From a phage, in the sequence record PV467749.1: a stretch of 64,000 nucleotides of DNA; one strand, given 5' to 3'. The translations under genes and the position numbers were made by a program. Positions within the stretch are counted from its first letter, which is position 1. The number at the start of each line of letters is the position of its first letter. Below the pieces are notes generated by a model, which saw only the letters and a list, made by a program, of their open reading frames with translations, made no database searches and was not told the DNA's origin. Shown in pieces: positions 1,054-53,500 of the stretch.

Positions 1054-6288
<5,235 letters not shown>

Positions 6289-6421
6289 TCACTTTCCCAG
6301 ATTTGATAAATAATATCATAGAGATCAGGGAATATTGCCTTAAATTTAAATGTGGTTTATATTTTTTGATAAATAATATTAAGCAGGGTGTTCCTGCACA
6401 AAATTTGACAAGGAGATTTTT

Positions 6422-7021
6422 ATGAGTCTTAATTCTTTTAACCGTAACTATGGTATGTCTGCTACTGCTCGTGAATACTGGGGTGGTAACAATGGTTTCG
6501 TAACCATCGTTGTTGATCTACCAGCAGATGTTGAAGTTGGTACTACCGCTGTTACTTCTGACGGTTCCGAAATTCAAGATGAAGCACTACAAACTGCAAT
6601 CAGCAATGCTCAATACAACCAATTCATGATTACCCAACTACTACAACAACGTGCAGTACTAGTTACTACTTCCGTACTAGCTCTAGACACCGCTGTTGTT
6701 ATCCCTGCTGACTTTAAAACCGTTGGTGGTAACGTAATCGCGTTTGGTACTAGTGGTGCTGATGTTACAGGTGGTGCTGGTTCTGTTGCTCTAACCTTCA
6801 TCTGTGAACGTCAAGACGTATTTGACAAACAAGAAGTTCGCCCAGGTGCTGCTTACTCTGTACCAGTTGATCCAACTGTTGAACTAGCTAAAGCTATTGC
6901 ACAAGCTAAATTCTTCCGTACCAAATCTTATGTTGCTCTAGGTACTGATGGTGTTGGTGATGCTGCTGCCGCTGACGCTGTTGCAATTAAAGTTCGTGCT
7001 GCTCTACCAGTACAACTATAA
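6422..7021 (+). CDS. hypothetical abundant protein, paralog A (199 aa)
   Basis: AGGAG RBS 8 nt upstream; Ala/Val/Thr/Gly-rich; shares motifs (QQRAVLV/IIATS, ER-DVFDK) with the next gene; codon usage like the capsid gene (cta Leu, cgt Arg, ggt Gly). Confidence 0.7.
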   Translation: MSLNSFNRNYGMSATAREYWGGNNGFVTIVVDLPADVEVGTTAVTSDGSEIQDEALQTAISNAQYNQFMITQLLQQRAVLVTTSVLALDTAVVIPADFKTVGGNVIAFGTSGADVTGGAGSVALTFICERQDVFDKQEVRPGAAYSVPVDPTVELAKAIAQAKFFRTKSYVALGTDGVGDAAAADAVAIKVRAALPVQL

Positions 7022-7036
7022 TAGGGGGACTACAAT

Positions 7037-7726
7037 ATGTCTAATACTAATACTTCTTTTGAACGTATCAATGGTTATTCCTTTGATAAAATTCTAGGTT
7101 ACTTCTGTGGCAAAAACGCCCTAGCATCTATCGCAATTAGTAAAATTGGTAATGTTAACGTGCGTGTTACTGGTGCAGTTGGTTCTTTCGCTGGTCTACA
7201 ACGTTTCCTAAACACTGATGTAGCTGATGAAATCGTTGCATATCTAAACGAAAAAGGTATCATCCGTATCGATGGTACTCCATTTGAAGCAGCAACTCTA
7301 GAAGCTGATTATAACGCTGCTTACGCTGCACAAACTAACGTTAAACGTATCGTTGATGTTGTTCAACAACGTGCAGTTATCATCGCTACTTCCGAAATCG
7401 CTGGCAACGACGTTGAGCCATTTGCAGTTACTGGTTTTACCAACGCTGCTGACGGTATCCTAAGTGTTGGGTCTGTTGATATCGCTAGTGCTTCAGTAGT
7501 TACTTTCCTCGTTGAACGTGCTAACGTATTTGATAAAGATATTCAATCTTTCCAAGGCGTTCCAAGTACTGAGATCGAAGAAGGCCGTCTACTAATTGAT
7601 GACCTAACCGCAGTTCCACTACTCGCTAAAGATGGTGTTACTGAAGTTGTTCTACGTTCCCAAGCTGCTGATGCTGCTGGTGACTTCGGTATCAAACTAT
7701 TCAAATTCATCCCAGCGATGGTTTAA
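7037..7726 (+). CDS. hypothetical abundant protein, paralog B (229 aa)
   Basis: GGGGGA RBS; paralogous to 6422..7021; same biased codon usage; followed by terminator. Confidence 0.7.
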   Translation: MSNTNTSFERINGYSFDKILGYFCGKNALASIAISKIGNVNVRVTGAVGSFAGLQRFLNTDVADEIVAYLNEKGIIRIDGTPFEAATLEADYNAAYAAQTNVKRIVDVVQQRAVIIATSEIAGNDVEPFAVTGFTNAADGILSVGSVDIASASVVTFLVERANVFDKDIQSFQGVPSTEIEEGRLLIDDLTAVPLLAKDGVTEVVLRSQAADAAGDFGIKLFKFIPAMV

Positions 7727-7747
7727 TAAATTAAAGATAAAAGAAAA

Positions 7748-7773
7748 GGAGAGCTTTTGCTCTCCTTTTTTTA
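7748..7773. terminator. bidirectional rho-independent terminator (A-run, GGAGAGC-TTTT-GCTCTCC, T-run)
   Basis: Perfect 7-8 bp GC-rich stem with 4-nt loop flanked by A-run upstream and T-run downstream; sits between convergent genes ending at 7726 (+) and 7771 (-). Confidence 0.8.
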
Positions 7774-8523
7774 TTTGTATGAACGGAACCCTTCAGGTAA
7801 ACCAGGTAGATTCTCTAACCCTTCGTTCGCATTCACTAGCTTTACGTCATAATCATCACTGAAATCATCCGTAGCTAGTTTACGCCCCATGTCTCTAACG
7901 AAGTTGTCAATAATTTCTTCTTCGTCATTACCTGGATGACCTTCCGCTTTTAACTTTTTCCAAAAGTATTCATTATAATCAAAAACAAATTCAACTTCAT
8001 TTGTTTCTGGATTAAGTACTACATCCAAATCAATCCAAGGTTCTTTACGTAAAGTAAAGATTTCCTTTGAATACTCTTGTTGTGTAATCTCTTCATAACG
8101 ATATGCAAACTCGATAGCTTTAAGACGTTTGTCATCACCATCAGGCATTAGTTCGATTACTTCCATATCATACTCTTTTTGAGTAATTGCACCAGTACTT
8201 AATTTAGCATCAAGTAATTTTACATTATACTCATCACGGGTAATCTTGGAATACTTCAATTGTACATCTGCCTGTGCTATTAGATAATCAAGAGTTTCTA
8301 ATACATTGTATTTCTTTTTGATATCCAACTGTGCTACATCAACTTCATATGGTGTTAGATATGTAAGTTCTGCAACTAACATATCAGCTTCATAATCATC
8401 GTTATAGTAGTATGCTTTCGCAATCTCTTTCGCTTTACCAGAAAGTCCCCAATGAGCGGGGACCATCCAGAAAGGAATAAACCTTTTTTTAGCCATTTGA
8501 TTTCTTACCAAAAATTTCTTCAA
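7771..8523 (-). CDS. hypothetical protein (start uncertain, 241-250 aa)
   Basis: ORF downstream of GroES-like gene on same strand; possible ATG start at 8496. Confidence 0.55.
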   Translation of the reverse strand: MKKFLVRNQMAKKRFIPFWMVPAHWGLSGKAKEIAKAYYYNDDYEADMLVAELTYLTPYEVDVAQLDIKKKYNVLETLDYLIAQADVQLKYSKITRDEYNVKLLDAKLSTGAITQKEYDMEVIELMPDGDDKRLKAIEFAYRYEEITQQEYSKEIFTLRKEPWIDLDVVLNPETNEVEFVFDYNEYFWKKLKAEGHPGNDEEEIIDNFVRDMGRKLATDDFSDDYDVKLVNANEGLENLPGLPEGFRSYK

Positions 8524-9065: not shown

Positions 9066-9797
9066 TTAGCAACCAGTTACGTAAATCTTGTATACCGCAA
9101 TACCAGTGTCTAGAGTTACGTTTAGCATACCAGTTTTTGTAATACCAAGGGTAACAGATTCTGCGTTAGAAACGCGGGATAGAGCTTGTAGAACACGATC
9201 AATGTTATAACCAAAACCAAGACCTAGTTCACCTTCAGTTTTAGAGAATGCTAGTGCACCAACGTGGTTACTTTTGTTCTTCTCACCAACGTGGAAGTAA
9301 AGAGTATCACCTTCAGTGTATGGAGTTACTAGAGAACTGAAAGATTTAAACACACCAGAGAAGCTTTTTAGTTCCTGAACTTTAGCTGCACTAGGTGTAA
9401 CCTGTACGTCATATGGTTGTTCGTGGAAACGAGGCTGGGCTGGAATTAGTTTTTCTGGTTGAACCATGAAAGTAGTGCTTGCATCTTCTGCTTTGAATGC
9501 TAGGCTCTTAACTGCACCATCTTTCAAATTAGAAGTGATAGTAGTTCCTTCAGTACTATAAGTTTTTAGAGACATTAGACCCTGTAGAAGACCTATGTTA
9601 CCAAGACCAAAACGACCTTGAACTTCTGGTACGTCTTCTTTAGTGTGAGCACGCATAACTAGGGTGCGGTCATCGGTGTATGCTTCCATGTAAACACGCT
9701 GTCCATCACCACGGTCTTCACTGCTAACTGCGATACAAGAAAAGTCGATGCCGTTGGTAGTGTTAACTAGGTCACGTAGTACGTTGCGTAGATCCAT
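9066..9797 (-). CDS. putative DNA polymerase sliding clamp (gp45-like); otherwise hypothetical
   Basis: 243 aa, similar in size to T4 gp45 (228 aa); weak block similarity (FGLGNIGLLQGLMSL, TTFMVQPEKLIPA) to gp45; downstream of DNA polymerase; highly biased codon usage; GGAG RBS; own sigma70-like promoter. Confidence 0.35.
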   Translation of the reverse strand: MDLRNVLRDLVNTTNGIDFSCIAVSSEDRGDGQRVYMEAYTDDRTLVMRAHTKEDVPEVQGRFGLGNIGLLQGLMSLKTYSTEGTTITSNLKDGAVKSLAFKAEDASTTFMVQPEKLIPAQPRFHEQPYDVQVTPSAAKVQELKSFSGVFKSFSSLVTPYTEGDTLYFHVGEKNKSNHVGALAFSKTEGELGLGFGYNIDRVLQALSRVSNAESVTLGITKTGMLNVTLDTGIAVYKIYVTGC

Positions 9798-16322: not shown

Positions 16323-17420
16323 TTACTTAAAAGTATTTACAATTTCTAAAACACTTTCAAGATACTTAGCATCAAAAGTTTCAGTAAATCCTGATGGCAA
16401 CTCTTCAGTACTTACCACACCACTTTCAATGTATTTCTTTATGAACTTTTCCAACAGTAATGGTTGATTGCCATCTTCAAAGTAGCGTTCTATAAGTACT
16501 TCATGCTCGAACTCAGAATTGCGGCTTTGTTCGTTAACACGGCGTTTCATATCACCAGTGATCCCATATTTGTACACCGTCTTGTTATTGTTAGTTAGTT
16601 TTTGTACATAGAAATATCCAGGTTTTGATGGTTGATATCCATATTCACCACATGATGGACATCCTTTACCAGCCATATGTGCTTTTGGTTGTTGGGAGAA
16701 GACACCATGAGTCGGACATACAATATCAATATAATTCTCGCTTAAAGTATATTCAACCAAGCTATAATCATACTTATGGTTATGGATAGGCGACACAAGT
16801 TCAATGAAACGTTCAGTGCTTCTTCCACCTTTACCAGAACATGTACCGCAGCCAGTTTTACCCTTCAATAAAGTTTGGGCTGAAACAGTCCATTCGTGTT
16901 TACCGCGTGTGCAATATACGGTAACTTCCGTTTTATTGTTAACATATTTGGTATTTGGAAATTCAAACGCACCACCATAGTTTTCTTTTACTTTTGCGAT
17001 GAATGATTCAGTACTGTATGCTTCATTTTTATTACAGACAGGACATCCCCTACCAGAAAGAAATTTGTTTGGTGTAATTTCAAAGTAATCGTTATGGTCT
17101 TCATCAGTGCAAAATAGTGTTACTTTTGTTATAGCGTTAGTGTAATTTAGTTTATCAAATTTGAATTTATCTTTACCAAATTTAGTTTCTACAGTACTGA
17201 TGAATGTGTCGTTGTTTGAACGCTGTGACATGTTTGAATAACATGATGCACATGTACATGCAATGTGACGAAGTGCAGACTTGGTGTTTTCTTTCCCACA
17301 CTTGTTACATTTTACTGTTGTTTTACTTGCCTTGAATACTAAAGTACTGAAGTCAAATTCTCCATACTTAGCAGTCATTTGGTTAATAAACTCTTCTTTG
17401 TTGATACTTACGTTTGGCAT
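16323..17420 (-). CDS. homing-endonuclease-like protein: tandem Cys/His zinc-ribbon modules + C-terminal GIY-YIG/T5orf172-like nuclease domain
   Basis: About four repeats of the module (K)YDYSLVEY-x8-IxCPTHGxFxQxPxxHxxGKGCPxC, then GYFYVQKL...VYKYGITGDMKRR...TETF resembling a GIY-YIG/T5orf172 domain; own consensus promoter; sits between capsid gene and downstream genes. Confidence 0.6.
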   Translation of the reverse strand: MPNVSINKEEFINQMTAKYGEFDFSTLVFKASKTTVKCNKCGKENTKSALRHIACTCASCYSNMSQRSNNDTFISTVETKFGKDKFKFDKLNYTNAITKVTLFCTDEDHNDYFEITPNKFLSGRGCPVCNKNEAYSTESFIAKVKENYGGAFEFPNTKYVNNKTEVTVYCTRGKHEWTVSAQTLLKGKTGCGTCSGKGGRSTERFIELVSPIHNHKYDYSLVEYTLSENYIDIVCPTHGVFSQQPKAHMAGKGCPSCGEYGYQPSKPGYFYVQKLTNNNKTVYKYGITGDMKRRVNEQSRNSEFEHEVLIERYFEDGNQPLLLEKFIKKYIESGVVSTEELPSGFTETFDAKYLESVLEIVNTFK

Positions 17421-17560: not shown

Positions 17561-18736
17561 TTACATGAAAGTAACGTTTTTGATAGCGATTTTGCTGTAG
17601 TAGTCAGCAGCGTTACCTAGTGAACTGGTGCTATCGGTCAACTGTACATAGCCATATCTGGTTAGAAAAGTTGTAACGAGTTCCCCAGTGTTAGGGTCCA
17701 TTACAGTACCGGAAGCCATTAGTGGGATGTATGGGCAATAGAACACACCAGCATCAGTTTCAGCGTTACCTTTGTAACCAATTAGGATATCTTCAACATC
17801 ACTTGCATAGGTATCAACGAAGATACGCATGGTGCTGTTTAGAGTACCAACAAATTTAACGTTAGTTGGAGCTTCGAAAGTACCTTCAGTAGTACGTGCA
17901 AAACTAGAAGTAGTTGCAGACTGTAGAATGGTTAGAGCGGTTGGAGAAACAACAGCCCAGTTCGCAGCACCACGTTTGGTACGACGAGCAACTTCGTTCG
18001 CTTGACGGTTGATTAGGGTAGCTAGAGCAGCGTGCTCGTCACCAACGAAGGTCGCAACACCAGTAACTTTAGATTGGTCATAAGTTACAGCAGCAGCACC
18101 AGGTAGTGCACGTAGACGGCTTAGTAGCTCTTGGTCGATTTCAACGGTAACTTCTTGAGCGATTGCAGCCATTAGTTCAGCTTCAACGTCAATACCATGT
18201 TGGGATTGTGCATCTTGTGCAGATTCAACAGTCCAACGTGCAGATAGACGACGAGATTTCGCTTCAACAGTTTCACGTAGAATACGGATGTTAACGCGAC
18301 GACCCATAGTACCTTCTAGTTGGCTAGTAGGAGCAGCTTGTGGGTTGCTGTTGTCTGCGTTTAGGTCACCAGTATAAGACTTAGCGATTTTGTATGGAGA
18401 AAGCATTTCTTCACCAGCGATAACACCAGGAGCGTTGTCAGCATATTGAACACGTAGGGTGTGGATCTGACCAACTGGGCCAGTCATTGGCTGAACACCG
18501 ATGATTTCGTTAGCGATTACGGTTGGCATAACACGACGCATAATTGGTAGAATCACTTTGTTTAGAGTAGCGATGTTACCAGCGGTGGTTGCACCAGAAG
18601 TAGCAGATTCGTTTAGCATTAGTTTACGATGGTTATCAAGTACGGTTTCCATTACGGACTTACGAGTACCTTGTAGACCTTCAACTAGTTTCTCTTTAAC
18701 TGCTACCCATTTGGATTCATTTAGTAGTTGTGACAT
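17561..18736 (-). CDS. gp23: major capsid protein (T4 gp23-like)
   Basis: Blocks IGVQPMTGPVGQIHTLRVQY, EAKSRRLSARW, RGAANWAVVSP, GYKGNAETDAGVFYCPYIPL parallel T4 gp23; synteny portal-core-protease-scaffold-capsid; AAGGAG RBS; TATAAATA upstream; biased codon usage. Confidence 0.9.
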   Translation of the reverse strand: MSQLLNESKWVAVKEKLVEGLQGTRKSVMETVLDNHRKLMLNESATSGATTAGNIATLNKVILPIMRRVMPTVIANEIIGVQPMTGPVGQIHTLRVQYADNAPGVIAGEEMLSPYKIAKSYTGDLNADNSNPQAAPTSQLEGTMGRRVNIRILRETVEAKSRRLSARWTVESAQDAQSQHGIDVEAELMAAIAQEVTVEIDQELLSRLRALPGAAAVTYDQSKVTGVATFVGDEHAALATLINRQANEVARRTKRGAANWAVVSPTALTILQSATTSSFARTTEGTFEAPTNVKFVGTLNSTMRIFVDTYASDVEDILIGYKGNAETDAGVFYCPYIPLMASGTVMDPNTGELVTTFLTRYGYVQLTDSTSSLGNAADYYSKIAIKNVTFM

Positions 18737-20660: not shown

Positions 20661-21476
20661 TTAGATTTTTGGTTGTGATTTTGGTAGTGGAGAACGAGAT
20701 TTAGAAGCGGTATTTTTTGGCTTCGCAACATCTTTCATTTCGCCACGAGCATTTTTACCTAGGTCTTCATCAGTGTGGGACATAGCATCTTCGTTTTCAA
20801 AATCATAATCTACTTGTTTTTCGGAAGCTTTAGCGAATTTCACTGGAGCAACACCTTGAACTGGAGATTTAGCTTCTGGTGCAACTGGGGACTTGGTATT
20901 AACGCCAGCTTTTTCTTTCTTATCAACCGCAGCAACTTGCTTAAGTTTGAAAGACTCACCAACTTTCTCATCACCGAATTGTACATCAGCAAATTCGTCT
21001 TCAGATTCTTCACCATCAGCACCAACTTCAACTTCTTCGTCGTCAGAACCTAGGTCAACTTCATCACCACCGATTTCGTCAAACATTTGTTGTAGGCCAC
21101 GGAAAGCATCTTGAATAGATTCCCATTGGTCTTCGGAAGGAACTTCTGCACCAACTTCTGCTTCAGCGTCAACTTCTTCGCCATCAGCATCAGCAGAGAA
21201 TTCAACTTCTTCTTCTGCACTTTCATCTTCTTCACCTAGGGTGTATTCGATTTCAGCATTTAGACCAGCGTCTGGTTGAACATCAAAGTCTTCGTCAAGT
21301 TTTTCTTCGTCTTTGACTTCAACTTCACATTCTTCTTCGTCCATGCTTTCTTCTAGTTCTTTATTGATTTCTTGAGCTTGCTCAACAAAGTACTTACGCA
21401 TTTTTTTATCAGCAACATCTTGTTCGCCGTTTGCAAACGCTTCAATTGCTTCTTGTAGTAGTTTTAAATTCGCCAT
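20661..21476 (-). CDS. highly acidic prohead core/internal protein (gp68-like by position)
   Basis: About 271 aa, extremely Asp/Glu-rich; between portal and protease genes; ATG 21476 with GGAGGA RBS. Confidence 0.5.
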   Translation of the reverse strand: MANLKLLQEAIEAFANGEQDVADKKMRKYFVEQAQEINKELEESMDEEECEVEVKDEEKLDEDFDVQPDAGLNAEIEYTLGEEDESAEEEVEFSADADGEEVDAEAEVGAEVPSEDQWESIQDAFRGLQQMFDEIGGDEVDLGSDDEEVEVGADGEESEDEFADVQFGDEKVGESFKLKQVAAVDKKEKAGVNTKSPVAPEAKSPVQGVAPVKFAKASEKQVDYDFENEDAMSHTDEDLGKNARGEMKDVAKPKNTASKSRSPLPKSQPKI

Positions 21477-21509
21477 TATATCCTCCATAGATATATTACA
21501 TTCATATAA

Positions 21510-36521: not shown

Positions 36522-39185
36522 ATGGCAGATACAAGTAAGAAATATGCCCAACAACAGTTGGGTCGTTTTGACCCTTCGTATCCACAACTAGCAACCGTGA
36601 TGGATAACCGTGACCCAACTAAATCCGGTAAGCTAAAAGTGTGGATTCAAGGTTCACAAAGTGATAAAAATTCAAAAGAGTCATGGATTGAAGCATCATA
36701 CATGTCTCCATTCGCTGGTAAAACTCCAGGGATACCAAGTGCTGATGCTTATGGTCAATATCCAAAGGGATATGGTTTTTGGGCGGTTCCACCTGATGTC
36801 GGATGTACTGTTGTTGTTATATTTGCACAAGCAAGAACATTCCAAGCGTATTGGATTGGTTGTGTTTATGACCAACGTATGAATACGATGGTTCCTGGGA
36901 TGGCTACTGAAATAAGCAATTATGCAGGTACTGATATGCCATTACCCGTAACTGATTATGACCGTAATACAATTTCTACCAGTACTCAAGACAAATATGC
37001 AAACGTTCCAATTATTGCAGGTCTGAAAAAACAAAACTTACTTTATGATGAGGAAGCGGGTGTTGCTAACCGTAGTAGTACTCGCCAGACCACCAGTACT
37101 GTTTATGGTCTTTCCTCACCTCGTGGTAACAGTTTTATTATTGATGATGGTTACACAGAAGAAGAATTAACAGCACCTACATGGGATCAAGATCCAGATG
37201 GTTATCAGGATACCCAATTCAATAACCCAGTGAACGATACTCGTGTTGGTTCTCGTAAAAATGAAGGCGTTGTAATTAAAACACGTAGTGGTGCACAGTT
37301 GTTGTTATCTGAAGCCTCTGGTGATGTTCTTTTAATTAACCGTGATGGTACTGCACGTATTAAATTCACTGGTGAAGGTGATATTGAAATGCACTGTGAT
37401 AAGAATATTAACATTCGTGCAGGTCAAGATATTAACATGGTTGCTGGACGCTCATATAATATTGAAAGTGGAGCAGACTTCAATGCTCGTGTTGGTGCAA
37501 ACACTAAACTAGATTTGGTTGGTGCATTGGATGCTAAAGTTGGTGGTCAGGTTGTTATTAACGCTGGAGCAGATTTACGTTTAGTAACAGCAGCTTCATT
37601 ACGTATGCAAAGTGGTAGCAGTACTGATATAACTGCTGGTTCTAATGCGTCAATCTCTGCTGCTACCAGTGCTAATCTTATTGGTTCTTCATCAGCTATT
37701 ATTAGTGGTGGTGGTCAAACCCTTACTGTTAACAGTGGTGGTAATAGTGGTACTGCTGAATTTAATGCACCAAACTTCCGCACCCCATCTGCTGGCTTGA
37801 ATGATCATATACATGATATATCGGCTTGGGTTGATGCAGAGAATCACGGCAGTACTGTTGAACCTCCACGTCAAGGTGGTGGTAGTGGGAATAGTGAATC
37901 CCCAGTTCAACCTGAACCTGCTAATGATGTAGCTCCAACTTTAGCTCCAGTACAGGACACTGAAGCAATTCAATATGTAAATTATACAACAGAAACAGAA
38001 CAAGTTCAAACACAAGATTTAATGACTTCTGATCCTAGTATGACTGGTTATAGCATTACTTATGAAGGTCTTCATATGTTCATGCCGTGTAGTGGAACCA
38101 TTCGCCAATACGGTTATTGGGGGAAAGGTGTCCCGACTAGTGGTGGTGGTAAAGCTGATAGAAGTGGCTGGGAAATACAGTGCAAGGGTGATGTTGTAGC
38201 TCCAGATGGCGGTGTAGTTGTTATCACTAATGGTGCTTTATTGGTTCAACATAAGTCTGGATATAAATCTGTATTTTATAATATTCAATCAGATTTGCTC
38301 AATAAAGACGTTGTTCAAAAAGGTCAAGTTATCGGTAAAGCTAATGGTGTTATTCAATTTGAAATAAGAGTCACCTCTGCCAACGTACTAGGATTTAGTG
38401 GTTCTGTTGACCCTGGATTATTCTATGCATCCCAGACTGGTACAGGTTCTGAAGCGGGAAATAAAACATTAATTGCAGGACAAGCAACGAACCAAGCAGC
38501 ACCGAAAGCTGTTGTTCAACCTTCTGTTGATAGTGATGAATTAGTTGTAACAACTAAAATTAAAACTATCGGTACTGGGTATTCTCAACGTGGTTCTCGT
38601 CATGTCCCTCGTCGTAGAAGAACACAACGTTCAGGTGGTACTCCAGCACCTACTGCACAAGAATCATACAATGTGGGTAATGTTGATAAGACTGCAATTG
38701 ATTGGAAAGTTGTTCCGGGTGATTCACAATTTATTTCTGAATTGAAAGAATATGAAGGAACAATGGCGTATCAACAAGCTAAAGGATATTACCGCAATGG
38801 TAAATTTTGGAGATATTTGGATAGTCGTGGATTCCCAACTATTGGTTACGGTCACTTGATTGTTGGTGGTGAAAACTTCTCTGGTGGGATTACCGAACAG
38901 GAAGCCAATGATATGTTGGTGCGTGATAGTAGTAAGGCTATATATGACGCAAAATCCATTTACGCTTCTTATAAGATGAAAACACCTTACATGGCACAAC
39001 AAGTTCTATGTCAAATGGTATTCCAGATGGGTAAAGGTGGTGTAATGAAATTTAAGTCAATGCTATCTGAAATGGCTAAAGGTAACTACAAGCAAGCTGC
39101 TGCTCAAATTCGAAATTCAGCTTGGTATCGTCAAACTACACGCCGTGCTGAATTAATGGCACGTAGATTAGAGGCATGTCAATAA
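36522..39185 (+). CDS. gp5: baseplate central spike, gp5-like, with C-terminal T4-lysozyme (GH24) domain
   Basis: N-terminal gp5/VgrG OB-fold pattern (GKLKVWIQG...GYGFWAVPPDVGCTVVVIF...YWIG); central Gly/Ser/Ala-rich repeats; block GQVIGKANGVIQFEIRV resembling a LytM/M23 fold without His ligands; C-terminal EYEGTMAYQ...PTIGYGH...VFQMGKGG...SAWYRQTTRRAE matching T4 lysozyme. Confidence 0.75.
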   Translation: MADTSKKYAQQQLGRFDPSYPQLATVMDNRDPTKSGKLKVWIQGSQSDKNSKESWIEASYMSPFAGKTPGIPSADAYGQYPKGYGFWAVPPDVGCTVVVIFAQARTFQAYWIGCVYDQRMNTMVPGMATEISNYAGTDMPLPVTDYDRNTISTSTQDKYANVPIIAGLKKQNLLYDEEAGVANRSSTRQTTSTVYGLSSPRGNSFIIDDGYTEEELTAPTWDQDPDGYQDTQFNNPVNDTRVGSRKNEGVVIKTRSGAQLLLSEASGDVLLINRDGTARIKFTGEGDIEMHCDKNINIRAGQDINMVAGRSYNIESGADFNARVGANTKLDLVGALDAKVGGQVVINAGADLRLVTAASLRMQSGSSTDITAGSNASISAATSANLIGSSSAIISGGGQTLTVNSGGNSGTAEFNAPNFRTPSAGLNDHIHDISAWVDAENHGSTVEPPRQGGGSGNSESPVQPEPANDVAPTLAPVQDTEAIQYVNYTTETEQVQTQDLMTSDPSMTGYSITYEGLHMFMPCSGTIRQYGYWGKGVPTSGGGKADRSGWEIQCKGDVVAPDGGVVVITNGALLVQHKSGYKSVFYNIQSDLLNKDVVQKGQVIGKANGVIQFEIRVTSANVLGFSGSVDPGLFYASQTGTGSEAGNKTLIAGQATNQAAPKAVVQPSVDSDELVVTTKIKTIGTGYSQRGSRHVPRRRRTQRSGGTPAPTAQESYNVGNVDKTAIDWKVVPGDSQFISELKEYEGTMAYQQAKGYYRNGKFWRYLDSRGFPTIGYGHLIVGGENFSGGITEQEANDMLVRDSSKAIYDAKSIYASYKMKTPYMAQQVLCQMVFQMGKGGVMKFKSMLSEMAKGNYKQAAAQIRNSAWYRQTTRRAELMARRLEACQ

Positions 39186-39222: not shown

Positions 39223-39711
39223 ATGAGTAAATGGGAAATCAAAAATACCGACGAACAATTTTTTAAAGAAATTAAAGAATTTGAAGGTACTATTGCGTAT
39301 CAGAAAAAACTTGGTTATTTTAAAAATGATAAGTTTTGGGTATATAAAGACAGTCTAGGTCTTGATACCATTGGTTACGGTCACCTTGTACTTAAGGGTG
39401 AAAGTTTCAAAAATGGACTCACTGAAGCAGAAGCTGATGCTCTCCTTATAAAAGATGCTCAGACCGCTTACAATGACGCAAAATCAATCTATGATCAATT
39501 TGGAATGACTGCTCCAGTACAGGTTCAGCGTGTATTGTGGTTTATGGTGTTCCAAATGGGTAAATCAAAAGTTTTAAATTTCAAAAAAGCGATGGCTGCT
39601 CTCGGTCGTGGTGATTATAAAACTGCTGGTAAAGAAATGCGTGATAGTTCGTGGTACAAACAAACCACATCCAGAGCGGAGAAGATGGCTCGCATCGTCG
39701 AATCCGTATAA
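39223..39711 (+). CDS. e: endolysin, T4 lysozyme-like (GH24)
   Basis: EFEGTIAYQ...YKDSLGLDTIGYGH (catalytic Glu/Asp/Thr equivalents), FMVFQMGKS, SSWYKQTTSRAEK; GAGGAAA RBS; close paralog of the C-terminal domain of the adjacent spike protein. Confidence 0.9.
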   Translation: MSKWEIKNTDEQFFKEIKEFEGTIAYQKKLGYFKNDKFWVYKDSLGLDTIGYGHLVLKGESFKNGLTEAEADALLIKDAQTAYNDAKSIYDQFGMTAPVQVQRVLWFMVFQMGKSKVLNFKKAMAALGRGDYKTAGKEMRDSSWYKQTTSRAEKMARIVESV

Positions 39712-40194: not shown

Positions 40195-40959
40195 ATGAAA
40201 TATGCAACAACCAGATCAACAAAATACAAATTTGTAACCAACGCCATTAGAGTGCATGGTATGCGTTATGATTATAGTATGGTTAAATATCATAATGCTA
40301 AAACAAAGGTGTGGATCGGATGTGAGAAGCATGGGTTTTTCCTACAAACACCAAATGACCATACATGTGGCAAAGGATGCATGGAATGCTCGGTTGAGTA
40401 TAATGCGAATCGTCAGAAAAGTCCACAGAACTTTATAAATTTTCTTAATAAGGCTAATTTAAAGTTTAGAAATAAATTTGATTATAGCACAGTAGAATAT
40501 GTTAATAATAAAACTCACATATCCATAATATGCCCAACACATGGGTCTTTTTTACAAAGACCTGATAATCATTTGTCAAGTAAGTATGGTTGTGAGAAAT
40601 GTATGATTGAATCAACGCAATCAAAAGCAGTAACTGATATTGAAAAAATGATATCTTTCACTAATTATGTTAAAGAAAAGCGTTTTGATGATTGTAGAAA
40701 CATATTAACTTTGCCATTTGATTTTTATATTGAAGATTTAAACTTGTGTATTGAATATGATGGTGAACAACACTTTCGATGTTCTGAACATTGGGGTGGT
40801 GACAAATCGCTAAAACAAACTCAACACAATGATAAAATTAAAAACACGTACTGTGCTGACCATGATATTAACTTACTTCGTATCAAATACGATGAAGATC
40901 ATATCATCGTACTAAAAAAGTACTTTTATGATAATTTTAACATAATATTAAAGGATTAA
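40195..40959 (+). CDS. homing-endonuclease-like protein: two Cys/His zinc-ribbon modules + C-terminal PD-(D/E)XK-like domain
   Basis: Modules RYDYSMVKY...IGCEKHGFFLQTPNDHTCGKGCMEC and KFDYSTVEY...IICPTHGSFLQRPDNHLSSKYGCEKC; C-terminus LPFDFYIEDLNLCIEYDGEQH...KIKNTY resembles DUF559/Vsr-like PD-(D/E)XK nucleases; inserted between gp25- and gp6-like genes. Confidence 0.6.
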   Translation: MKYATTRSTKYKFVTNAIRVHGMRYDYSMVKYHNAKTKVWIGCEKHGFFLQTPNDHTCGKGCMECSVEYNANRQKSPQNFINFLNKANLKFRNKFDYSTVEYVNNKTHISIICPTHGSFLQRPDNHLSSKYGCEKCMIESTQSKAVTDIEKMISFTNYVKEKRFDDCRNILTLPFDFYIEDLNLCIEYDGEQHFRCSEHWGGDKSLKQTQHNDKIKNTYCADHDINLLRIKYDEDHIIVLKKYFYDNFNIILKD

Positions 40960-44469: not shown

Positions 44470-44505
44470 AATCAAATGAATGAACGAATTATATGGAGTC
44501 CAAAA

Positions 44506-47500
44506 ATGACTAATAATTTTAAGTTTCAACCTACACAGATGGCTGAAGCAGTACAGAAGAAGCTTTTCATAAAAAGATTGCCTGAGTGGATGCAAGGCTT
44601 AGAAGATATTCAGAAAGTCAGTGATGATGTTATCCAACAATGGTTTAATCCGGCTGAAAACGAATTAGTTGACGGCTACATTGGTGACATGGGTTCTCCG
44701 GCAGCAGCAGGGAACATCTTCTTACACGAGTCAACAGTCGCACGTCAACTATATCAGTTGTCCACTGCGTATGTCTCAAGAAATGATGACTCCAGCATTC
44801 GTTCAATTCAATTTTATGATGATCTAGTTGGCTATATGAATCATTACGGGGCACTAACCGAAAATGAAAGCCGTTTGTTTAATGGTAAGTTCTATTCATG
44901 GACCCCACCAATTAACCCTAACAAAATGAACAACTACAGTTCATATCTATGGGATTCCAAGAATAGCTATAATATCGCAACTCCAGATTATATTGTAATG
45001 GAACGTGGTGCAGAAAATGGAAACACTTGGTCACTACAAAACTTCTGGTACACATTAGGTGAAACTTTAGAAGATGGTACAATCCTAACTGAAGAACTAA
45101 TGCAAGATTCCCGTTTTGTTCGTGCTCGTGCTCCAATTATCGAATACAATAAAAATATCGAACTAATGAACTACGGTACTAAATTCCGTGGGACAGTTGA
45201 TTTGTTCTCTGATATTATTAAACCTGAAGATATCGTACAAAAAGATATTAACAGCGGTATACGTATTGATGGTATTATTCCACAAGATGGTATGCGTATT
45301 CTTTTCACCAGTATTGGTAACAATGGTGAAAACAACCGAATTTATAAAGTATATGTTAAACGTATGCAAGATGGAACACGTGTGTATGGTCTAGCATTAG
45401 ACCCAGACGAAGAATCTGAAAGCCGTCCGAGTGGTGAACCACAAGATGGTGACGTAGTTCTTATTATCAAAGGTAATGAATTTGGTAACAGTTCCATGTA
45501 TTGGGACGGTTCTCATTGGATTCAAGCACAGTCTAAAACTTCTGTGAACGTATTTCCACAATTCCAATTGTATGACCGTAATGGTGTTAAACTAAACAAC
45601 ACTACTACCTATCCATCAAGTACTTTTACTGGTTCTTCATTATTTGGTTTTAAAATTAACTATAATTATGCAACCGATAGCGTTTATGGTTATAACATTG
45701 AACTGGGTGATTACAATTATTACACCTATGAGAATTTCCTACAATCAACTCGTTATACCTACGAGCATTTGGGTGTGGAAGTTGAAATTGATGGACTATA
45801 TTACTATAACGTAATTGGTGAAGGTAATACAATGAACCTAGAAACTGATTGGGTTCGTAGTACTGAATACTCCAAACAATATGTTAAACAAACTCCACAG
45901 GTTGAACGTACAGTAATGTTCCGCGTGTTCAGTACTGTTTATGACATGGAAAGTTTCAAAGATCCAGTTGAAGGAATGTATGCTTATGTAATTGAAGTTG
46001 ACAGAACTTATCAATATTACAAAGCAGAACGTGAAACATATCTTGATTGGCATGTTATCGTTGGTGATGGGGTACAAAGCGTTAAGTACAATCATACATT
46101 TGAATTGGCACAAAAAGTACTAGATAATTCTGATGATATTATCGAACTAGTTGTTGATGGTGTGGAAATAAAAGAATACACCAAAACTGTAGTTAATAAT
46201 CAAGTACAAAGTATTACAATTGATAGCTCTGTTGATTTGGATGAAGATTCTGTTGTACAAATAAGAACTTATAGTAGCACTATCACTCCTAATAAAGAGT
46301 TGGGTGCATATGAAGTTCCAATTAACCTACAAAATAACCCATATAATTCAAACATTGAATACATCAATCAAGGTGATTACACCCTGCACTTCCAAGATAT
46401 TATTCAAAAGAATATTACATCTGGTTCTGCTGATGACTTTAACAATTACGAAGAACGTTTGGCTGCTGGTTTGGTTAATAATGGTGTAGGCACTAAAATT
46501 ATTCAAAACGAAGCGTCCATGTTACCACTAATGGCACATACCGCTAATGAAGATATTGATTTGTTTGAATCAATCATGTTTATGCAAGCAGAATACTTCC
46601 GCTTCATTAACAAGTTCAACACTCAAATGCTTCGTTTGTATGAAGAAGACCCAAGTGCTTTTCTTGGTAATAGTGCATCAAACATCGTAGATGCGATTCT
46701 AACAGCTATTAATATGGGACGTGATAGTTCATTCCCATTCTACTATGACAACGTTGCAAGCACTGCTGGGTTTATTCGTGCATTTGTCCCACCAACTCCA
46801 CAGTTCTTGGGTATTTTGCAAGCTTATACACCACAAAAAGCAACATTCTTAACTGCTGGTAGTAAATCTAGCTGTTATAATATCAGTCATACTGGTGTTA
46901 TTTCAAAAGCATACCGTGTTATCAATGGTGTTGATAAAATGGATGACGTAGTTTTTGAATTGGAAAATCGTATCTTTAATAGTATTGACCTTACTTTCAA
47001 GGATATTGATTATAAACCAGTACTAAACAGTGAAGACCTATTCCCAACTCCATATTTCACTGGTACTGATTATAGTGCAGAAGAAAAGAAAACTCTATTA
47101 CTACGTGGTTACATTAACTTCACAGCAACCAATGGTATTAGTAACAGTACTCATGATTATGATGCAAATAACTGGAGAACTTGGAACTATACTGGTAGTT
47201 ATTATGTTGTTGATGGTCAACGTACTGAAATTCCTGCTCGTGGTTCATGGCGTGCAATCTATACTGACCAATATGGCACATATCGTCCAGCAACCCATCC
47301 GTGGGAAATGATGGGCTTCTCTCAACGTCCTACTTGGTGGAACCAAGAATACGAACCAACCGCAGTTCAAGTTGGTGAACGTGAGGGTGATGTTGTTTAT
47401 GTGTATGAAGCACTAGTAATGAATGAAAATGGTGATTTGGTCCCAAGTGGATTGTGGGATATTGATGGTACTATCGGTGACAGCAGCACTGGTACTATTT

Positions 47501-50500
47501 TGTCCGGTGAACGCCGTGGTCAATATGACAAATACAAGCGTTTCGGTGTACAGCCATTTAAAATCACTAAGACTGGCGAGAAAACCAGTACTGGTATTGA
47601 TATTTGTGAAGTTGAGTATATTGCACCTGAAGTTTTAGGTCTTGTTAGTGGTAATTTAGATCATCGTGCAGAACCGTGGGCTTATGGTGACATGGGTGAC
47701 ATGGAATTCACTTACATGAACACTGCGATGTTTGCTTATGACCAAATGCTTCTTCTATACAAAGCAAAACCAGCACAGTTTGCAAACTATTACTGGGATA
47801 CCCGTAATGATAACCTTAAACCAGTTTATACTGATGGTTCACAGTTCCTTTATGGTGAAACCCGTAAGCGTCTAAACTTTGACAGTGCTACATTAGTACA
47901 TGGTGAGAAAAATACCCGTACTATCGGTTATCAAATGTTTGTTAGTGACTATTTGATGTATCAGAATAAGAACATTACCACCAAATACGGTGACGTTGTT
48001 CGTTCTTCTTATGTCAATGTCGCTCACAAAATTGGTGGCTTTACTAAAGCAGACCAATTGACATTCACTGCTAAATCTTTCGGTTTGATTTCACAAGAAA
48101 ACCAAACTATCGGTCTAGTTCGTTCCAATAACATTCGCGATGAGCAAATGAGTGCAGTAAAAATTACTTGGAATGGTAGTGCATATCAAATTGATGGTTA
48201 TGATTTAGTTGGTGCTAAATTTAAATATAAAATTCCAGTTAAAAATGGAAGAAAAGTAACTCTTAAATTGGAAGACAGAACTGTTGTTCATTACAATGAA
48301 TGGAAATCTGAAGGTACATTAGAATATGGTAAAATATTCAATACATACCAAGAAGTTTATACTTTCATTTGTGGATATGGTGAATATCTAAAAGAACATG
48401 GCTGGATTTTTGAAGATGTAAATGATAGTGGTGCTCAACAAGACTGGACAACTATTGCTAAAGACTTTGTTATTTGGAGTCAGAATAATTTAAGTACTGG
48501 TGAGTTCATCTCCTGTACTCCAAGTGCAGCTAATGCTAAATTTGGTGCAGATTTTGGTTCAGTTCAATCTGTTACACAGAACAGTGGTGGTGTTTGGTCA
48601 CTACTCGATGATGAAAACCAAGGTATCCGTCAATATGAAATCGAAACTTCGCGTATCGGTAACGTATTCACAGTGAGAACTACATCTGAATCACAAAAAC
48701 GTATGGCGTTGATTCGTTTGAGCCTAAGTTCATATGAACACGCAGTTGTTTTTGATGATAAAACTATCTTTGGTGATTACATTTACCAACCAACTTATGG
48801 TGCTATTCAAGAATTGATTAAAATGTATGGTTACATTACTGGGGCATGGACTGGTCGCCTACAAGCACCTGGTTTCATTATCCTAGAAGCAGGAACTTTA
48901 CCATCATTTGAAAAATTAGTAACTGATTTTGAATTATATTATAATAGTGAAACTCCTGTGAGTGATGTTCAGCTTCAAGAGTTATCAAATCACTTGATTG
49001 GCTATCAAACTCGTGATTATCTACAACGTATGATTAGTAGTGATGTTAGTCGTGTTGATTTCTATAAAGGATTCATTCATGACAAAGGTACTAACCAAGT
49101 AATGGAAAAAGTACTACGCGTTTCTAAATCTTACGACACTGATGAATATAAAGCACTACAGGAATGGGCATTTAAGATTGGCACTTATGGTAATATCAAT
49201 GGTAAGAAAAATCTACAATTTAAACTAATCAATGACCAATTTAAACAACAACCACAGATGGTTTCGTTTGATGTTAATGCTACATCAAATGGTACTGGTA
49301 ATGGTATTGTTTATTACGGTGAACAAGGGGTTGACTCACGCTGGATTACTCGTCCAAATGGTAAGTTTTCATTCCCAATGCGTAGTGGAAGAAGTGAGAA
49401 TATCCAACTTCCAGACATTGGCCCAGTAACACTAGATGAAATTTCATACGTTACTAAAGATTTCAGTACTGCATATAATGATCGTATCAATTATATGAAT
49501 AACAGTGGTGAAATACCAGATTCTGTATGGATGTTTAAAGATGGTAATGATTTGTGGAATATTTTCGAACTAGTAGACACTGAAGTTGAGATGCTCTCTA
49601 TCGTTCCAATTGAAAATACCGATGTATATGCAGAACAATTCTGTAAAGTAACTCTAAGTGATGATATCCCACTAAATGATGGTGATTATTATTACTTTGT
49701 TGATGAAACTAACTTTATGCCAGATACATTGACTATAGAAAGTCAATATTATACTGCGGGTAATGACCCTAGAGTTATGGTAGTTCCGTTTGACACTTCA
49801 ATAACTATTGACTTCACTGATCCTGATACTCGCCCACGCTTGTATCGTTATGTTTCACGATTCAGTACTGAAGAGATGCGTCAGGAATACATTGACAGAA
49901 AATATAGTTTTAAAGCTCCACAAAGTACTTTGTTTGACCGCCCAACCACATATGATGAGCGTACTAACATTACTGCGTTGTACCTAAACGTGTTTGACCC
50001 AATCAACGGTGTTATTCCTGGTGCAGCGATGCAGAACGTTACCTACACATCTCCAGTTGACCCAGCACAATACAACAGCAATGGTGAATTGATTCAAGCA
50101 TGGGGTGCTGATAAAGTTGGTCAGGTTTGGTGGAACACCAGCACTGCTTTCTACTTAGATTACACTCGTGCAATCTATGATGCTGATGGTAATGTGGATG
50201 TTGATGCAACAAATGAATATAAACGTTATAACTGGGGCAGATTGCTACCGCACAGTACTGTTGATGTTCTTGAATGGGTATGTTCGCCAGTGGAACCATA
50301 TAACTGGGACAAATACTGTAAAGACGTTGCTAACAAAAATAAAAACAATACTATGTACCTACCAAGCGGAACCGCATTGGAAGATAATTATAGTACGTTC
50401 TTAGAATATGATAGCACAACTGATACTTATGTTACAAAATACTATTTCTGGGTTCGTGATACAATCTATGTACCACCATTGCATTCCAGAACTAAATCTT

Positions 50501-53500
50501 GTACTGATATTGCTCGTATTATTAAAGAACCAGCACAGCTTAACATTCCTTGGTTTGCACCAATCAATGAAAGCTCGTTCATTCTAAGTAATATGCAATT
50601 TGAAGTCAACGATGACACAAGTATTTTAACTGTTTCTTATTACATGGATAATACTGAAGTTATTAAACATGACCAGTATCAATTATGTAAAGAAGGTGAT
50701 AGCTATAACTTCAATCCATCAATCTGGACTTCTATGTGGAATTCTATGATTGGTCAAGAAACTACTGAATCAGGAACTGTTATTGATTTACTATATCCTT
50801 TAGTACCAAACGGTTTAGGTTCTAATAAGACTTGGTTCCAAGATGTAATTGAAGCTCGTAGAAACTTTGTAGAAAGTGCAAATAACTATTATCGCTCACA
50901 GAATATAACAACTAACACTGTTCTAATGGACGAAGTGTTTAATGTTAAAACTACTGAAGTTAACCCGAATGAAGTATCATATCGTGTACTAACTTACAAT
51001 AGTGAATTAGTCATTGCACCTGAAAGTGACAAGTTCAAAGAAAACGACGCAGTACTAGTAAGTACTAGTGGTGTATTACCTAACCCACTATCAACTAGCT
51101 CTGTATATTTTGTGCATATTGATGCTAATGGTTATATTCATCTAATGAATAGTCCATCAAGTGCTGGTAGTGTGGTTACCATTACATTGGAAAACCGTGG
51201 TGAAGGTCAACAGAAAATGATTAAACAATCAGACTATGTTGAAGCACTAGGAACTTCATTGGACATGACCCAGTACTGGTCACTAGCAGATTGGTATGAT
51301 ATTGGTTACGATAAAAATACTGCATATACACAAGAATCCAGCCTAGAAGATGCAAACACTAAGAACTATCAAGTTGGTGACATTATCAGAATTACAGATG
51401 TTGATGGCATCTGGACATTGTACATTAAAGCACAATCACGTGATTCAGTTTACTGGAAAGCAATTGGTCGTGAAAATAGTACAGTTGAATTGAATGATAT
51501 GTTATACGCTGACTATACAGTTCGTGATGCTAATGGTTCGTTGAGTAATCGTGAGATTAACGTTCGTAAAGCACTAGCTTTATTGAAGAACTCATTCGAC
51601 TTACATCAGAGTGAAATTGTGTTTGATATGGTTAAGTATGTTCACGTAGAACAAAGCGTTGTTGATTGGGTATTCAAAACATCTTACATTTATATTGTAG
51701 GTTTAGAACAATCATTAGTACAGAACTATTCCAACGACAACTTGATTAATCAAATCGTTGAGTACTTTGAAGAAGTTAAACCATATAGAACTAAGATTCG
51801 TTCCCAGATTGAACAGAAAACATCAGATGATGATTTAATTAAAGGTTTGTGTAATGATTTAGATCCTAATGGCTATATATTTGCAGATGGGACTTGGGTT
51901 AAAACGGAAAAAGACATTTGGGATTATGAATATGCTCAATTCAATGAGGTAACTCAACGTTGGGAGCAAGTTGGTGAATTGCCAAGTGATTTCGTAACAC
52001 CTAATCGCCGTTTCCAAGAAATTGATGTTATCATGCACTACGACAACACTCAATGTAAACCAAATGATAATTTGGCAAGTGTTGATGTATTGGAAGAAGT
52101 GAATAAGAAATATCAATCTAATGCACAAGATGTTGTTAGTAATTTTGAATTACAACGTTACAAATATACATTCCCAGAATACAGTGATGAAGATTTCGAC
52201 CTATTGGTTGCTTATCAGATGCAATTGTATTACCCAGAATTGAACGTAACTCTAGGGATTGCTTACGGTGTTAACCAATGGTATGCAGACCATGCAGATG
52301 ATTTGGTAGCAACCGCAGAATTCACAGAAACGTTGAATCGTGTATATAAAGAATCAACACAAAATGAAATGTTTAATGACGTAAATCATTACGTTCAGTA
52401 TAACACACTCTCTAACCGTTTGAAATTGTACACAGGTGCAGATGATGAAGTAATTCATGATGAAGTTGGATGTGGATTTAGTGGGTTAACCTATGATGAT
52501 AATCCAAGCACCAGACTACCGTTTGGTTATGCATCCAGTACTGATTATAACTTTGGTTACTTTGAAGTTAGTAGTGAGTTGTATAAAAAGTATGTTTCTT
52601 TAATTAAAGAAAACAATACTACTGCAACTGATGATGAAGTTAGAATTATACTTGAAGTTGAATATGGTGTTTATTCATATCGCCATGTAGATGAAGATGG
52701 AAATCAACGATTCTACAATGACGCAATTCATGTATTGTCCGGTATGCGTGGTTTGTATGACAAAGATGCTACCGACCATTATGAAAAGGCTGAAGAAATA
52801 CTAAGTAGAATGCCTATTGATATTCATGCATTTACTATGATGCCACGAAAATATGTTTATGTTAATGTTAATGGTGTATACGAGAGTATCCCAGATGACC
52901 AAAGCATTGATGATTTCATGGAAGACAAATTCATAACTGACGGTCAACTAGTTCAATTGGCAGAAATAAATCTTGATGACTTACCTCTTGATAGAAATAA
53001 CCCAATGTACAGTGATTATCAGCACATCCTAGATAGCATCACCGATGCTAAGTACTACGATGATATGAATGCATTTGATAACCTAGCACTTGAATCACAA
53101 ACTTCCGAGTTAAAATGGGAAGTTGAAGGTGACGAAGTAGATCCGTACATAATCGACATTTCTGATATTAACCCATCAGGAAGAAAGATTGGTCAGATTC
53201 GCTTCACAGTTGATGGTTATGGATTCAATAGTGTTTCACTAGTTCAATTGAGAGACAATAGTAGATATAAAACTGAAGGTATGGTTATTATCAACCCTTA
53301 TAAAACAACAGAAGCAATTGTTAGTATTCCTTCTTACGCTAAGATTGAAAATGATATTAGTAAATCATACAGTAAGTATGATGAAAAATACTTCTATAAA
53401 ATTAAATCAATTGTTAGTGATACAGAAGCTGAAGTAATTGACAATACCCTATCTGATGGTGATAAGGTTATGATATTCACAACTGATGGTGAAGATTATG

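Follow-up and report, generated by a model that had tools for sequence, protein, structure and literature searches.

A window of 64,000 nucleotides of phage DNA (sequence record PV467749.1; "the window" throughout) carries two adjacent genes with very strong codon bias, and the question raised by this locus is what their products do and where in the phage particle they reside. Gene A (6422..7021, + strand) encodes a protein of 199 aa (20.8 kDa, pI 4.5), and gene B (7037..7726, + strand) encodes its paralogue of 229 aa (24.3 kDa, pI 4.5), which has an additional 29-aa helical insertion; an earlier note on this DNA had given the coordinates and lengths of both reading frames exactly. The 3.4 kb around the pair is 99.6-99.8% identical to Escherichia phages BF17, WPEC5, EC.P1, Turkey3, and fEgEco12 (350-385 kb), and about 82% identical to the Asteriusvirus phages 121Q, PBECO4, and phAPEC6. 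As judged from sequence identity, the window is thus part of the genome of a Rak2-like (Asteriusvirus-related) jumbo myovirus of E. coli. The genes near the pair encode terminase, RNase H, GroES, sliding clamp, and DNA polymerase, while farther along the window there are baseplate genes and a head module with portal, protease, and the major capsid protein (17561..18736, - strand; match to phrog_138 with E 6e-98). A and B are the lone + strand pair within a long run of - strand genes. The sheath gene lies outside the window; in fEgEco12 it is located about 85 kb from the A-B pair, and tube-family genes follow directly after it.

Among these neighbors, the gene of the terminase large subunit is broken by a single extra C within the Walker A codons, which read ATG-C-GGA AAA ACA ACC here and ATG GGC AAA ACT ACT in phAPEC6. 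The 0-frame codon at this site is CGG, one of only three CGG codons among the 774 arginine codons of the window, and the surrounding 201 nt are identical in nine independently deposited phages. The simplest route to a functional terminase ATPase would be a programmed +1 frameshift.

The relationship between A and B is only weakly visible in a pairwise BLASTP comparison (34% identity over 93 aa, E 1e-6). When the relatives of each protein were gathered (43 for A and 78 for B) and joined in one alignment of 123 sequences, the A group and the B group were 27-30% identical across their full length, with N66, R77, S84, E129, and R130 (A numbering) invariant in all 123 sequences. The hhalign comparison of the A-orthologue and B-orthologue profiles gave a probability of 99.0% and an E value of 6.4e-18 over 177 columns, with the 29-aa insertion in B. 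Both proteins also matched the phrog_9326 profile over essentially their entire length, A with residues 1-199 on profile positions 1-195 of 195 (E 2.6e-82), and B with residues 4-229 on profile positions 2-195 (E 3.4e-81). The motifs QQRAV(L/I)xxTS and TF(I/L)xER(Q/A)(D/N)VFDK are common to A and B. The paralogy of A and B, as read from these alignments, is real, and the claim of paralogues with common internal motifs is borne out by the profile comparison and by the full-length placement of both in phrog_9326. A is the orthologue of RaK2 gp107, 121Q gp618, phAPEC6 gp210, and CBB_271, and B is the orthologue of RaK2 gp106, 121Q gp617, phAPEC6 gp211, and CBB_270, with GAP32 gp265/gp264 as further orthologues of the pair. 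On all testable criteria A and B belong to the PHROG 9326 / RaK2 gp106-gp107 virion protein family. Their richness in alanine, valine, and threonine, which had also been noticed before, holds as well: these residues make up 36% of A, 30% of B, and 30% of the major capsid protein, which are the top three of the 47 open reading frames in the window. Both proteins are mildly hydrophobic (GRAVY +0.2 to +0.3).

For either protein the search hit 74 phage records, spread over the host genera in equal numbers for A and B, and the matches listed are all Rak2-like genomes, mostly of 310-386 kb; phage phiKp24, whose capsid has been solved, is not among these listed matches. A profile search of 1.84 billion representative proteins returned only 42 clusters, nearly all of 140-300 aa, and the family is therefore narrow. 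Both proteins of the window are 100% identical to deposited proteins, and A is 100% identical to the proteins of fEgEco12, BF17, and EC.P1, and 80-82% identical to that of 121Q. Between the Escherichia lineage and the Klebsiella and other lineages, A diverges in its C-terminal ~30 residues (84% coverage). Here and in fEgEco12, 121Q, phAPEC6, RaK2, and CBB, the tandem pair lies on the + strand and is flanked by - strand genes, with RNase H before it and a virion protein and then GroES after it; the same arrangement occurs in Vibrio phage 2.275.O, which has three copies. Some distant members of the family (P0146, P0150) carry an extra domain of ~90 aa inserted before the last strand. Another protein, P0158 (1054 aa, with LamG and He_PIG domains), was considered as a fusion pointing to surface display, and it was rejected as the match lies in a repeated linker (hhalign probability only 29%).

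Codon usage places A and B beside the capsid gene. The effective number of codons (Nc) was 30.0 for A and 28.7 for B, the two lowest values among the 47 open reading frames of the window (32.4 for the capsid gene), and also the two lowest among 425 open reading frames of at least 90 aa, a set that covers practically the whole genome by combining the near-identical fEgEco12 record with the window. In a CAI-type index with the capsid gene (17561..18736, - strand) as the reference, A ranked first, the capsid gene second, and B third. The preferred codons are the same in A, B, and the capsid gene (GCT, GTT, ACT/ACC, GGT, CGT, ATC, and CTA), and CTA accounts for 87-92% of their leucine codons versus 23% in other open reading frames of the window. 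As A and B lie on the strand opposite to the capsid gene, strand composition cannot explain the common bias, and the low GC3 of A and B (0.20-0.25) means that the bias does not come from foreign DNA. The index falls from the capsid gene, A, and B to the head protein encoded at 20661..21488, then to the sliding clamp, SSB, and tail sheath (0.60), and then to a tube-like gene (0.575), so that the bias of A and B is stronger than that of the sheath and tube-like genes. This order fits the prediction from the link between codon bias and expression level. The capsid-like codon usage claimed in the earlier note is thus confirmed, both in the lowest Nc values of 425 open reading frames and in the codon preferences common with the capsid gene. 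By several measures only the capsid gene equals or exceeds A and B in expression.

The preference for CTA is an observation in its own right, and CTA is the rarest leucine codon of E. coli. Its share of leucine codons is 64-74% in the sheath, clamp, and SSB genes and 21% genome-wide, and the preference was found again in the 121Q and CBB orthologues. No phage tRNA-Leu(UAG) that could account for it was found in the window or in fEgEco12, where the tRNAs are only Ser (two), Met, Asn, and Thr (two), with no tRNA-Leu.

The sequences flanking the pair resemble those of a dedicated late transcription unit. Two copies of the late-promoter-like motif GATAAATAATAT, which is of the T4-type TATAAATA class, precede gene A on the + strand, the distal one at 6305..6316 (116 nt 5' of the A ATG) and the proximal one at 6368..6379 (53 nt 5' of the ATG). 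The 11-mer ATAAATAATAT occurs four times in the window versus 0.22 expected, and each copy lies just 5' of a virion gene in the proper orientation; A has two of them, and the capsid gene and the gene at 1054..2358 have one each. The distal motif and its position are kept in 121Q, phAPEC6, RaK2, and CBB, and the proximal motif is kept at -53 to -63 in the same four phages and in Vibrio phage 2.275.O. The sequence ATAAATA has been put forward as a late promoter before structural genes in CBB and GAP32 (PMC5259590), and we infer that the GATAAATAATAT motifs act as T4-like late promoters. Directly after the proximal motif there is a 5'-leader hairpin, GCAGG-GTGTT-CCTGC (6383..6397, + strand), which is present in the minimum-energy fold with an unexceptional energy (z -1.47). 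Its position is conserved, and the RaK2 version, GTAAG/CTTAC, keeps the pairing via changes on both sides; the hairpin could possibly serve as an mRNA-stabilizing 5' stem-loop. The Shine-Dalgarno sequence AAGGAGA of gene A, as read from the sequence (6410..6416, + strand), is kept in all relatives inspected, and a Shine-Dalgarno-like AGGGGGA of gene B, read in the same way, lies within the 15-nt spacer between A and B (7023..7029, + strand). At 7741..7779 the terminator scan located a bidirectional intrinsic terminator, in which a 14-bp stem, AAGAAAAGGAGAGC/GCTCTCCTTTTTTT, is followed by a T-run, and which closes both the A-B unit and the convergent gene at 7771..8523. Its fold has an energy of -20.3 kcal/mol (z -5.96), and none of 200 shuffled sequences folded as well. 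An equivalent hairpin lies 3' of B in 121Q, phAPEC6, RaK2, CBB, and the Vibrio phage; 2.275.O has the same layout with one promoter motif and three paralogues. Together, A and B appear to form a conserved two-gene late unit that has strong ribosome-binding sites and extends from tandem T4-type promoter motifs to a strong terminator.

The presence of both proteins in virions has been documented for their orthologues. SDS-PAGE and MS-MS identified gp106 and gp107 of RaK2 as virion proteins, which were called abundant and described as "two distantly related proteins," and which migrate at their predicted masses, with no sign of processing (PMC3622015). In phAPEC6 virions the MS sequence coverage was 69.8% for gp210 and 69.9% for gp211, as compared to 74.9% for the capsid protein and 68% for the sheath (PMC7247149), and in the CBB virion CBB_270 had a coverage of 91.3%, the highest of the 55 proteins reported, with 56.4% for CBB_271 (PMC5259590); such coverage values, like codon bias, reflect copy number only roughly. 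The virion proteomics proposed in the earlier note as a check has, hence, already been published for the orthologues in RaK2, phAPEC6, and CBB, which are among the best-covered virion proteins, and these data agree with its expectation of very high expression and an abundant structural role. The pair is already known in this sense, and its sequence adds nothing to the deposited and published record. The description of the function as not assigned is also still correct, as the label deposited for the pair in the 121Q, fEgEco12, and RefSeq records is only "virion structural protein." Two further labels, "hemagglutinin repeat-containing protein" for the B orthologue of phAPEC6 and "recombination protein" for the A orthologue of CRJP21, were considered and found to be without support. 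The Sharanji and JP4 papers contain nothing further on these proteins.

Structure prediction gave confident models for A (pLDDT 89.3, pTM 0.84) and B (pLDDT 81.6, pTM 0.77), both computed with AlphaFold2 from the 123-sequence alignment. In each model a flexible arm of ~25 residues at the N-terminus leads into a strand and then a 26-residue helix, which packs on a four- to five-stranded sheet, and the predicted fold of both proteins is a ferredoxin-like alpha/beta sandwich. The N-terminal 25 residues are conserved in both paralogue families (R8, G11, G22, and N24) and have low pLDDT, as is expected of an arm that becomes ordered only on a partner. The searches with these models and sequences did not lead to a known family. 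The Pfam search of A and B returned sub-threshold noise only (OxRdtase_C, GLMA_C), the PDB search with sequences and profiles gave no match, the best Foldseek hit of the models against the PDB had an E value of 0.12, and the BFVD structure search returned only family members and uncharacterized proteins. The order of the strand, 26-residue helix, and sheet had suggested an HK97 fold, which was ruled out when the fold searches did not support it. The Ig-like similarity that the earlier note had proposed for fold comparison was not found in that comparison, and no fold or sequence match was detected between A or B and the decoration proteins of the beta-tulip (gpD), Soc, Hoc/Ig-like, or Dec/OB types.

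In 2013 one of the two proteins was proposed to be the tail tube protein, which is the only function suggested for them in print. The RaK2 authors based this guess for gp106/gp107 on protein size, on abundance, and on the beta-sheet content that was predicted, before any tube gene could be recognized (PMC3622015). The data now available largely refute this proposal, which we regard as very improbable. In fEgEco12, three genes directly downstream of the sheath (g297-g299) match tail-tube families (phrog_4542 with E 7e-86 and 1e-80, and phrog_13438 with E 2e-225), and show weak links to the T4 gp19-like phrog_45. The phAPEC6 proteins gp273c-gp275c, which have matching predicted masses and are encoded beside the sheath gene, are present in the virion with 9-30% coverage (PMC7247149). 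A jumbo phage of more distant relationship, phiKp24, also has its tube gene beside the sheath gene. The A and B genes are not adjacent to the sheath gene, neither protein has a tube-family match in Pfam or PHROG, and the beta-sandwich with a protruding hairpin that characterizes the tube fold is not seen in their predicted models. Additionally, a tail of 25 rings with six subunits each requires 150 subunits, about tenfold below the capsid protein, while the bias of A and B exceeds that of the sheath. Of the three options raised in the earlier note, the tube-like one is therefore contradicted by the tube-family genes that adjoin the sheath elsewhere and by the predicted fold, while a decoration protein and an internal protein would both be compatible with the data.

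The reading that we favor, tentatively and at slightly less than an even chance, is that A and B are abundant late virion proteins forming the second capsid layer, or surface cement, of the head, a reading reached by stoichiometric elimination. The shells of Rak2-like phages (121Q, phAPEC6, RaK2, CBB) are among the largest of the HK97 type, with T=28 and about 1620 capsid subunits. [quoted passage not shown] The 121Q map contains zig-zag ridges across the local two-folds, described as "possibly an independent decoration protein," and another protein at each hexamer center. The phAPEC6 authors allowed that this layer might instead belong to the capsid protein, as an additional domain. Any protein with one copy per capsid subunit has to rank among the most abundant virion proteins and to be encoded by one of the strongest late genes. 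Among the small proteins, only A and B fit both expectations on every measure, which favors the cement role. This role is also favored by the lack of processing in RaK2, the acidic character, the N-terminal arm fit for docking, and the tolerance of an extra domain; the ~90-aa insertion in P0146 and P0150 is easier to fit on an outer surface. The ATAAATAATAT element common to A and the capsid gene, and an operon layout kept from E. coli phages to a Vibrio phage, also speak for the cement reading.

If so, A and B would constitute the second protein layer of the T=28 capsid and would strengthen this very large shell as a cement. The monomer models leave the conserved N-terminal arm disordered, and this arm would dock onto the capsid protein or onto a neighboring subunit. 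The sites taken by the two paralogues could be non-equivalent, or A could pair with B at the two-fold contact. A more specific version, which we consider possible but rather doubtful, is that A-B pairs, probably placed across the local two-folds, represent a new structural class of cement that forms the hexagonal outer network with ~800-1700 copies of each protein per head.

The main rival explanation, which we consider unlikely, is that A and B are major components of the inner body, present in hundreds of copies and possibly ejected with the DNA. The heads of 121Q and phAPEC6 contain such a body. It is a radiation-sensitive protein rod of ~91 x 18 nm that is surrounded by the DNA, and hundreds of copies of some protein are required to build it. 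We estimated from the published dimensions and typical protein density that a rod of this size would hold ~400-900 subunits of 21-24 kDa, which fits the high abundance of A and B. This location would also agree with the absence of similarity between A or B and any known external decoration protein, and with their being tandem paralogues, as is typical of phiKZ, whose inner-body proteins reportedly also form sets of tandem paralogues. On the other hand, the prohead protease cleaves the inner-body proteins of phiKZ and the internal proteins of T4, and proteins that pass through the prohead core are usually processed. The orthologues in RaK2 migrate at the predicted mass and show no such processing (PMC3622015). 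An (L/I)xE site is absent near the N-terminus of A and, in B, before residue 70. Acidic, mildly hydrophobic proteins are not what is expected to be embedded in DNA, and a codon bias equal to that of the capsid protein, with its 1620 copies, is more than an inner body seems to need. The phAPEC6 authors found no similarity to any phiKZ inner-body protein, and preferred RCC1-like paralogues as the inner-body proteins.

The maps of 121Q and phAPEC6 contain further densities to which A and B could belong, including the anchor of a fiber at the hexamer center (270 hexamers), a dome-like vertex protein, elongated proteins at the collar and distal tail, and fiber rings. A placement of A and B at one of these sites, as the hexamer-center fiber anchor, the vertex density, a coat of the sheath, or the "hairy" fiber rings, also seems improbable to us. 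The hexamer-center anchor, at 2-6 copies per hexamer, would be a high-copy protein as well. However, the decorations of the collar and tail are low-copy (12 per ring), which is a misfit with capsid-level abundance, and nothing in the A and B sequences suggests a fiber or a fiber-binding module.

Assigning A and B to the second layer would, if true, give a gene to a density that has been without an assignment since 2017-2020, and would provide an example of a heteromeric decoration lattice. Linking them to either the second layer or the inner body would complete a missing part of the virion map for phages that are now studied for therapy. A survey of jumbophage capsids states that the role of jumbophage decoration proteins is unknown, and in the literature no near-atomic structure of any Rak2-like capsid was found. 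If the cement role were proven, the fold would be new, and the pair would be a heteromeric version of an already known type of function.

When compared to known systems, A and B show no substantive difference from the RaK2 gp107/gp106 family, with which they share homology, order, synteny, and the layout of promoters and terminator. Their likeness to tail tube proteins (T4 gp19/phrog_45/phrog_4542) is in the size of 20-25 kDa and the presence in the virion, while the tube proteins belong to another family, have another predicted fold, and are encoded beside the sheath. The inner-body families of phiKZ and the internal proteins of T4 are similar to A and B as abundant head proteins, tandem paralogues, and proteins of a jumbo phage with an inner body, but they have no sequence similarity to A and B, which are acidic rather than DNA-friendly and whose RaK2 orthologues lack any sign of processing. 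The cement proteins of tailed phages are small and abundant, and bind about 1:1 with the capsid protein at capsomer contacts on an HK97-fold shell. The likeness of A and B to lambda gpD, T4 Soc/Hoc, phage L Dec, and T5 pb10 is in the proposed role only; they differ from the known cement proteins in sequence and fold, in being two paralogues instead of one protein, and in that their binding to the capsid is putative. The pair may act as a cement although it falls outside all known cement families.

The proteins A and B, two paralogous virion proteins of the family phrog_9326, share an unusual leucine codon preference with the major capsid gene. The codon comparison covered the segments 17561-18736 (minus strand; major capsid gene), 6422-7726 (plus strand; A and B) and 9066-9797 (minus strand) of the window, as well as the regions L005 (2426-5089), L001 (632-1699) and L011 (17325-21573) of the near-identical Escherichia phage fEgEco12. 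Among the leucine codons, the share of CTA is 87-92% for A, B and the capsid gene, 64-74% for the genes of the sheath, the clamp and SSB, and 21% over the whole genome, so that CTA use tracks expected expression. CTA is the rarest leucine codon of E. coli. No tRNA-Leu is encoded in fEgEco12, where the tRNAs are only those for Ser (two), Met, Asn and Thr (two). The orthologues from the related jumbo phages 121Q and CBB showed the same preference, and those from RaK2 and the Vibrio phage showed it less strongly.

In Vibrio phage 2.275.O, the most distant sequenced relative, the family is represented by three tandem members rather than two (NVP2275O_488/487/486; L013, 1135-3206), located at the same position adjoining GroES. 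The presence of three copies indicates that the A/B family expands by local duplication. The distantly related metagenomic proteins P0146 and P0150, each about 300 aa long, contain an additional segment of ~90 aa directly ahead of the conserved last strand, with repeated GG(S/T)GY motifs. This segment had no Pfam match, and its match to phrog_460 (head closure Hc2) was only marginal.

A tandem duplication also involves the 887-aa baseplate hub/tail lysozyme (36522-39185, plus strand), which is followed by a 162-aa ORF (39223-39711, plus strand). The latter matches only positions 727-885 of phrog_13211, which correspond to the C-terminal lysozyme part of the family of the 887-aa protein, and has its own copy of the TATAAATA motif 18 nt upstream. 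The 162-aa ORF represents a second, tandem copy of the lysozyme domain. A single ORF of 3333 aa (44476-54477, plus strand) is located in the baseplate/tail region. Two HNH/homing-endonuclease genes (phrog_681/559) reside in the structural modules of the window, one directly downstream of the major capsid gene (16323-17420, minus strand) and the other (40195-40959, plus strand) flanked by the baseplate wedge genes on one side and by a 1153-aa ORF on the other.

The terminase large-subunit gene is broken into ORFs of 114 aa (3691-4035) and 445 aa (2391-3728), both on the minus strand, by one surplus C within the Walker A codons (~3768-3775, minus strand). The window reads CAG ATG C GGA AAA ACA ACC at this site, while phAPEC6 has CAG ATG GGC AAA ACT ACT (Q M G K T T). 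Read in the 0 frame, the site gives CGG, a codon found only three times among the 774 arginine codons of the window. Over the 201 nt around the site, nine independently deposited phages are 100% identical, and each has its terminase annotated as two ORFs. This site is a candidate for programmed +1 ribosomal frameshifting at a hungry codon; the terminase ATPase would have its P-loop only if such a shift took place.

A separate 228-aa gene (4007-4693, minus strand), located upstream of the main terminase ORF, encodes the N-terminal part of the gp17-like terminase. This part is likewise annotated as its own gene in fEgEco12 and CBB, and a similar-sized gene is found at the matching position in phAPEC6 and RaK2. 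The split of the packaging ATPase, with a separate N-terminal gene, is conserved in the Rak2-like group.
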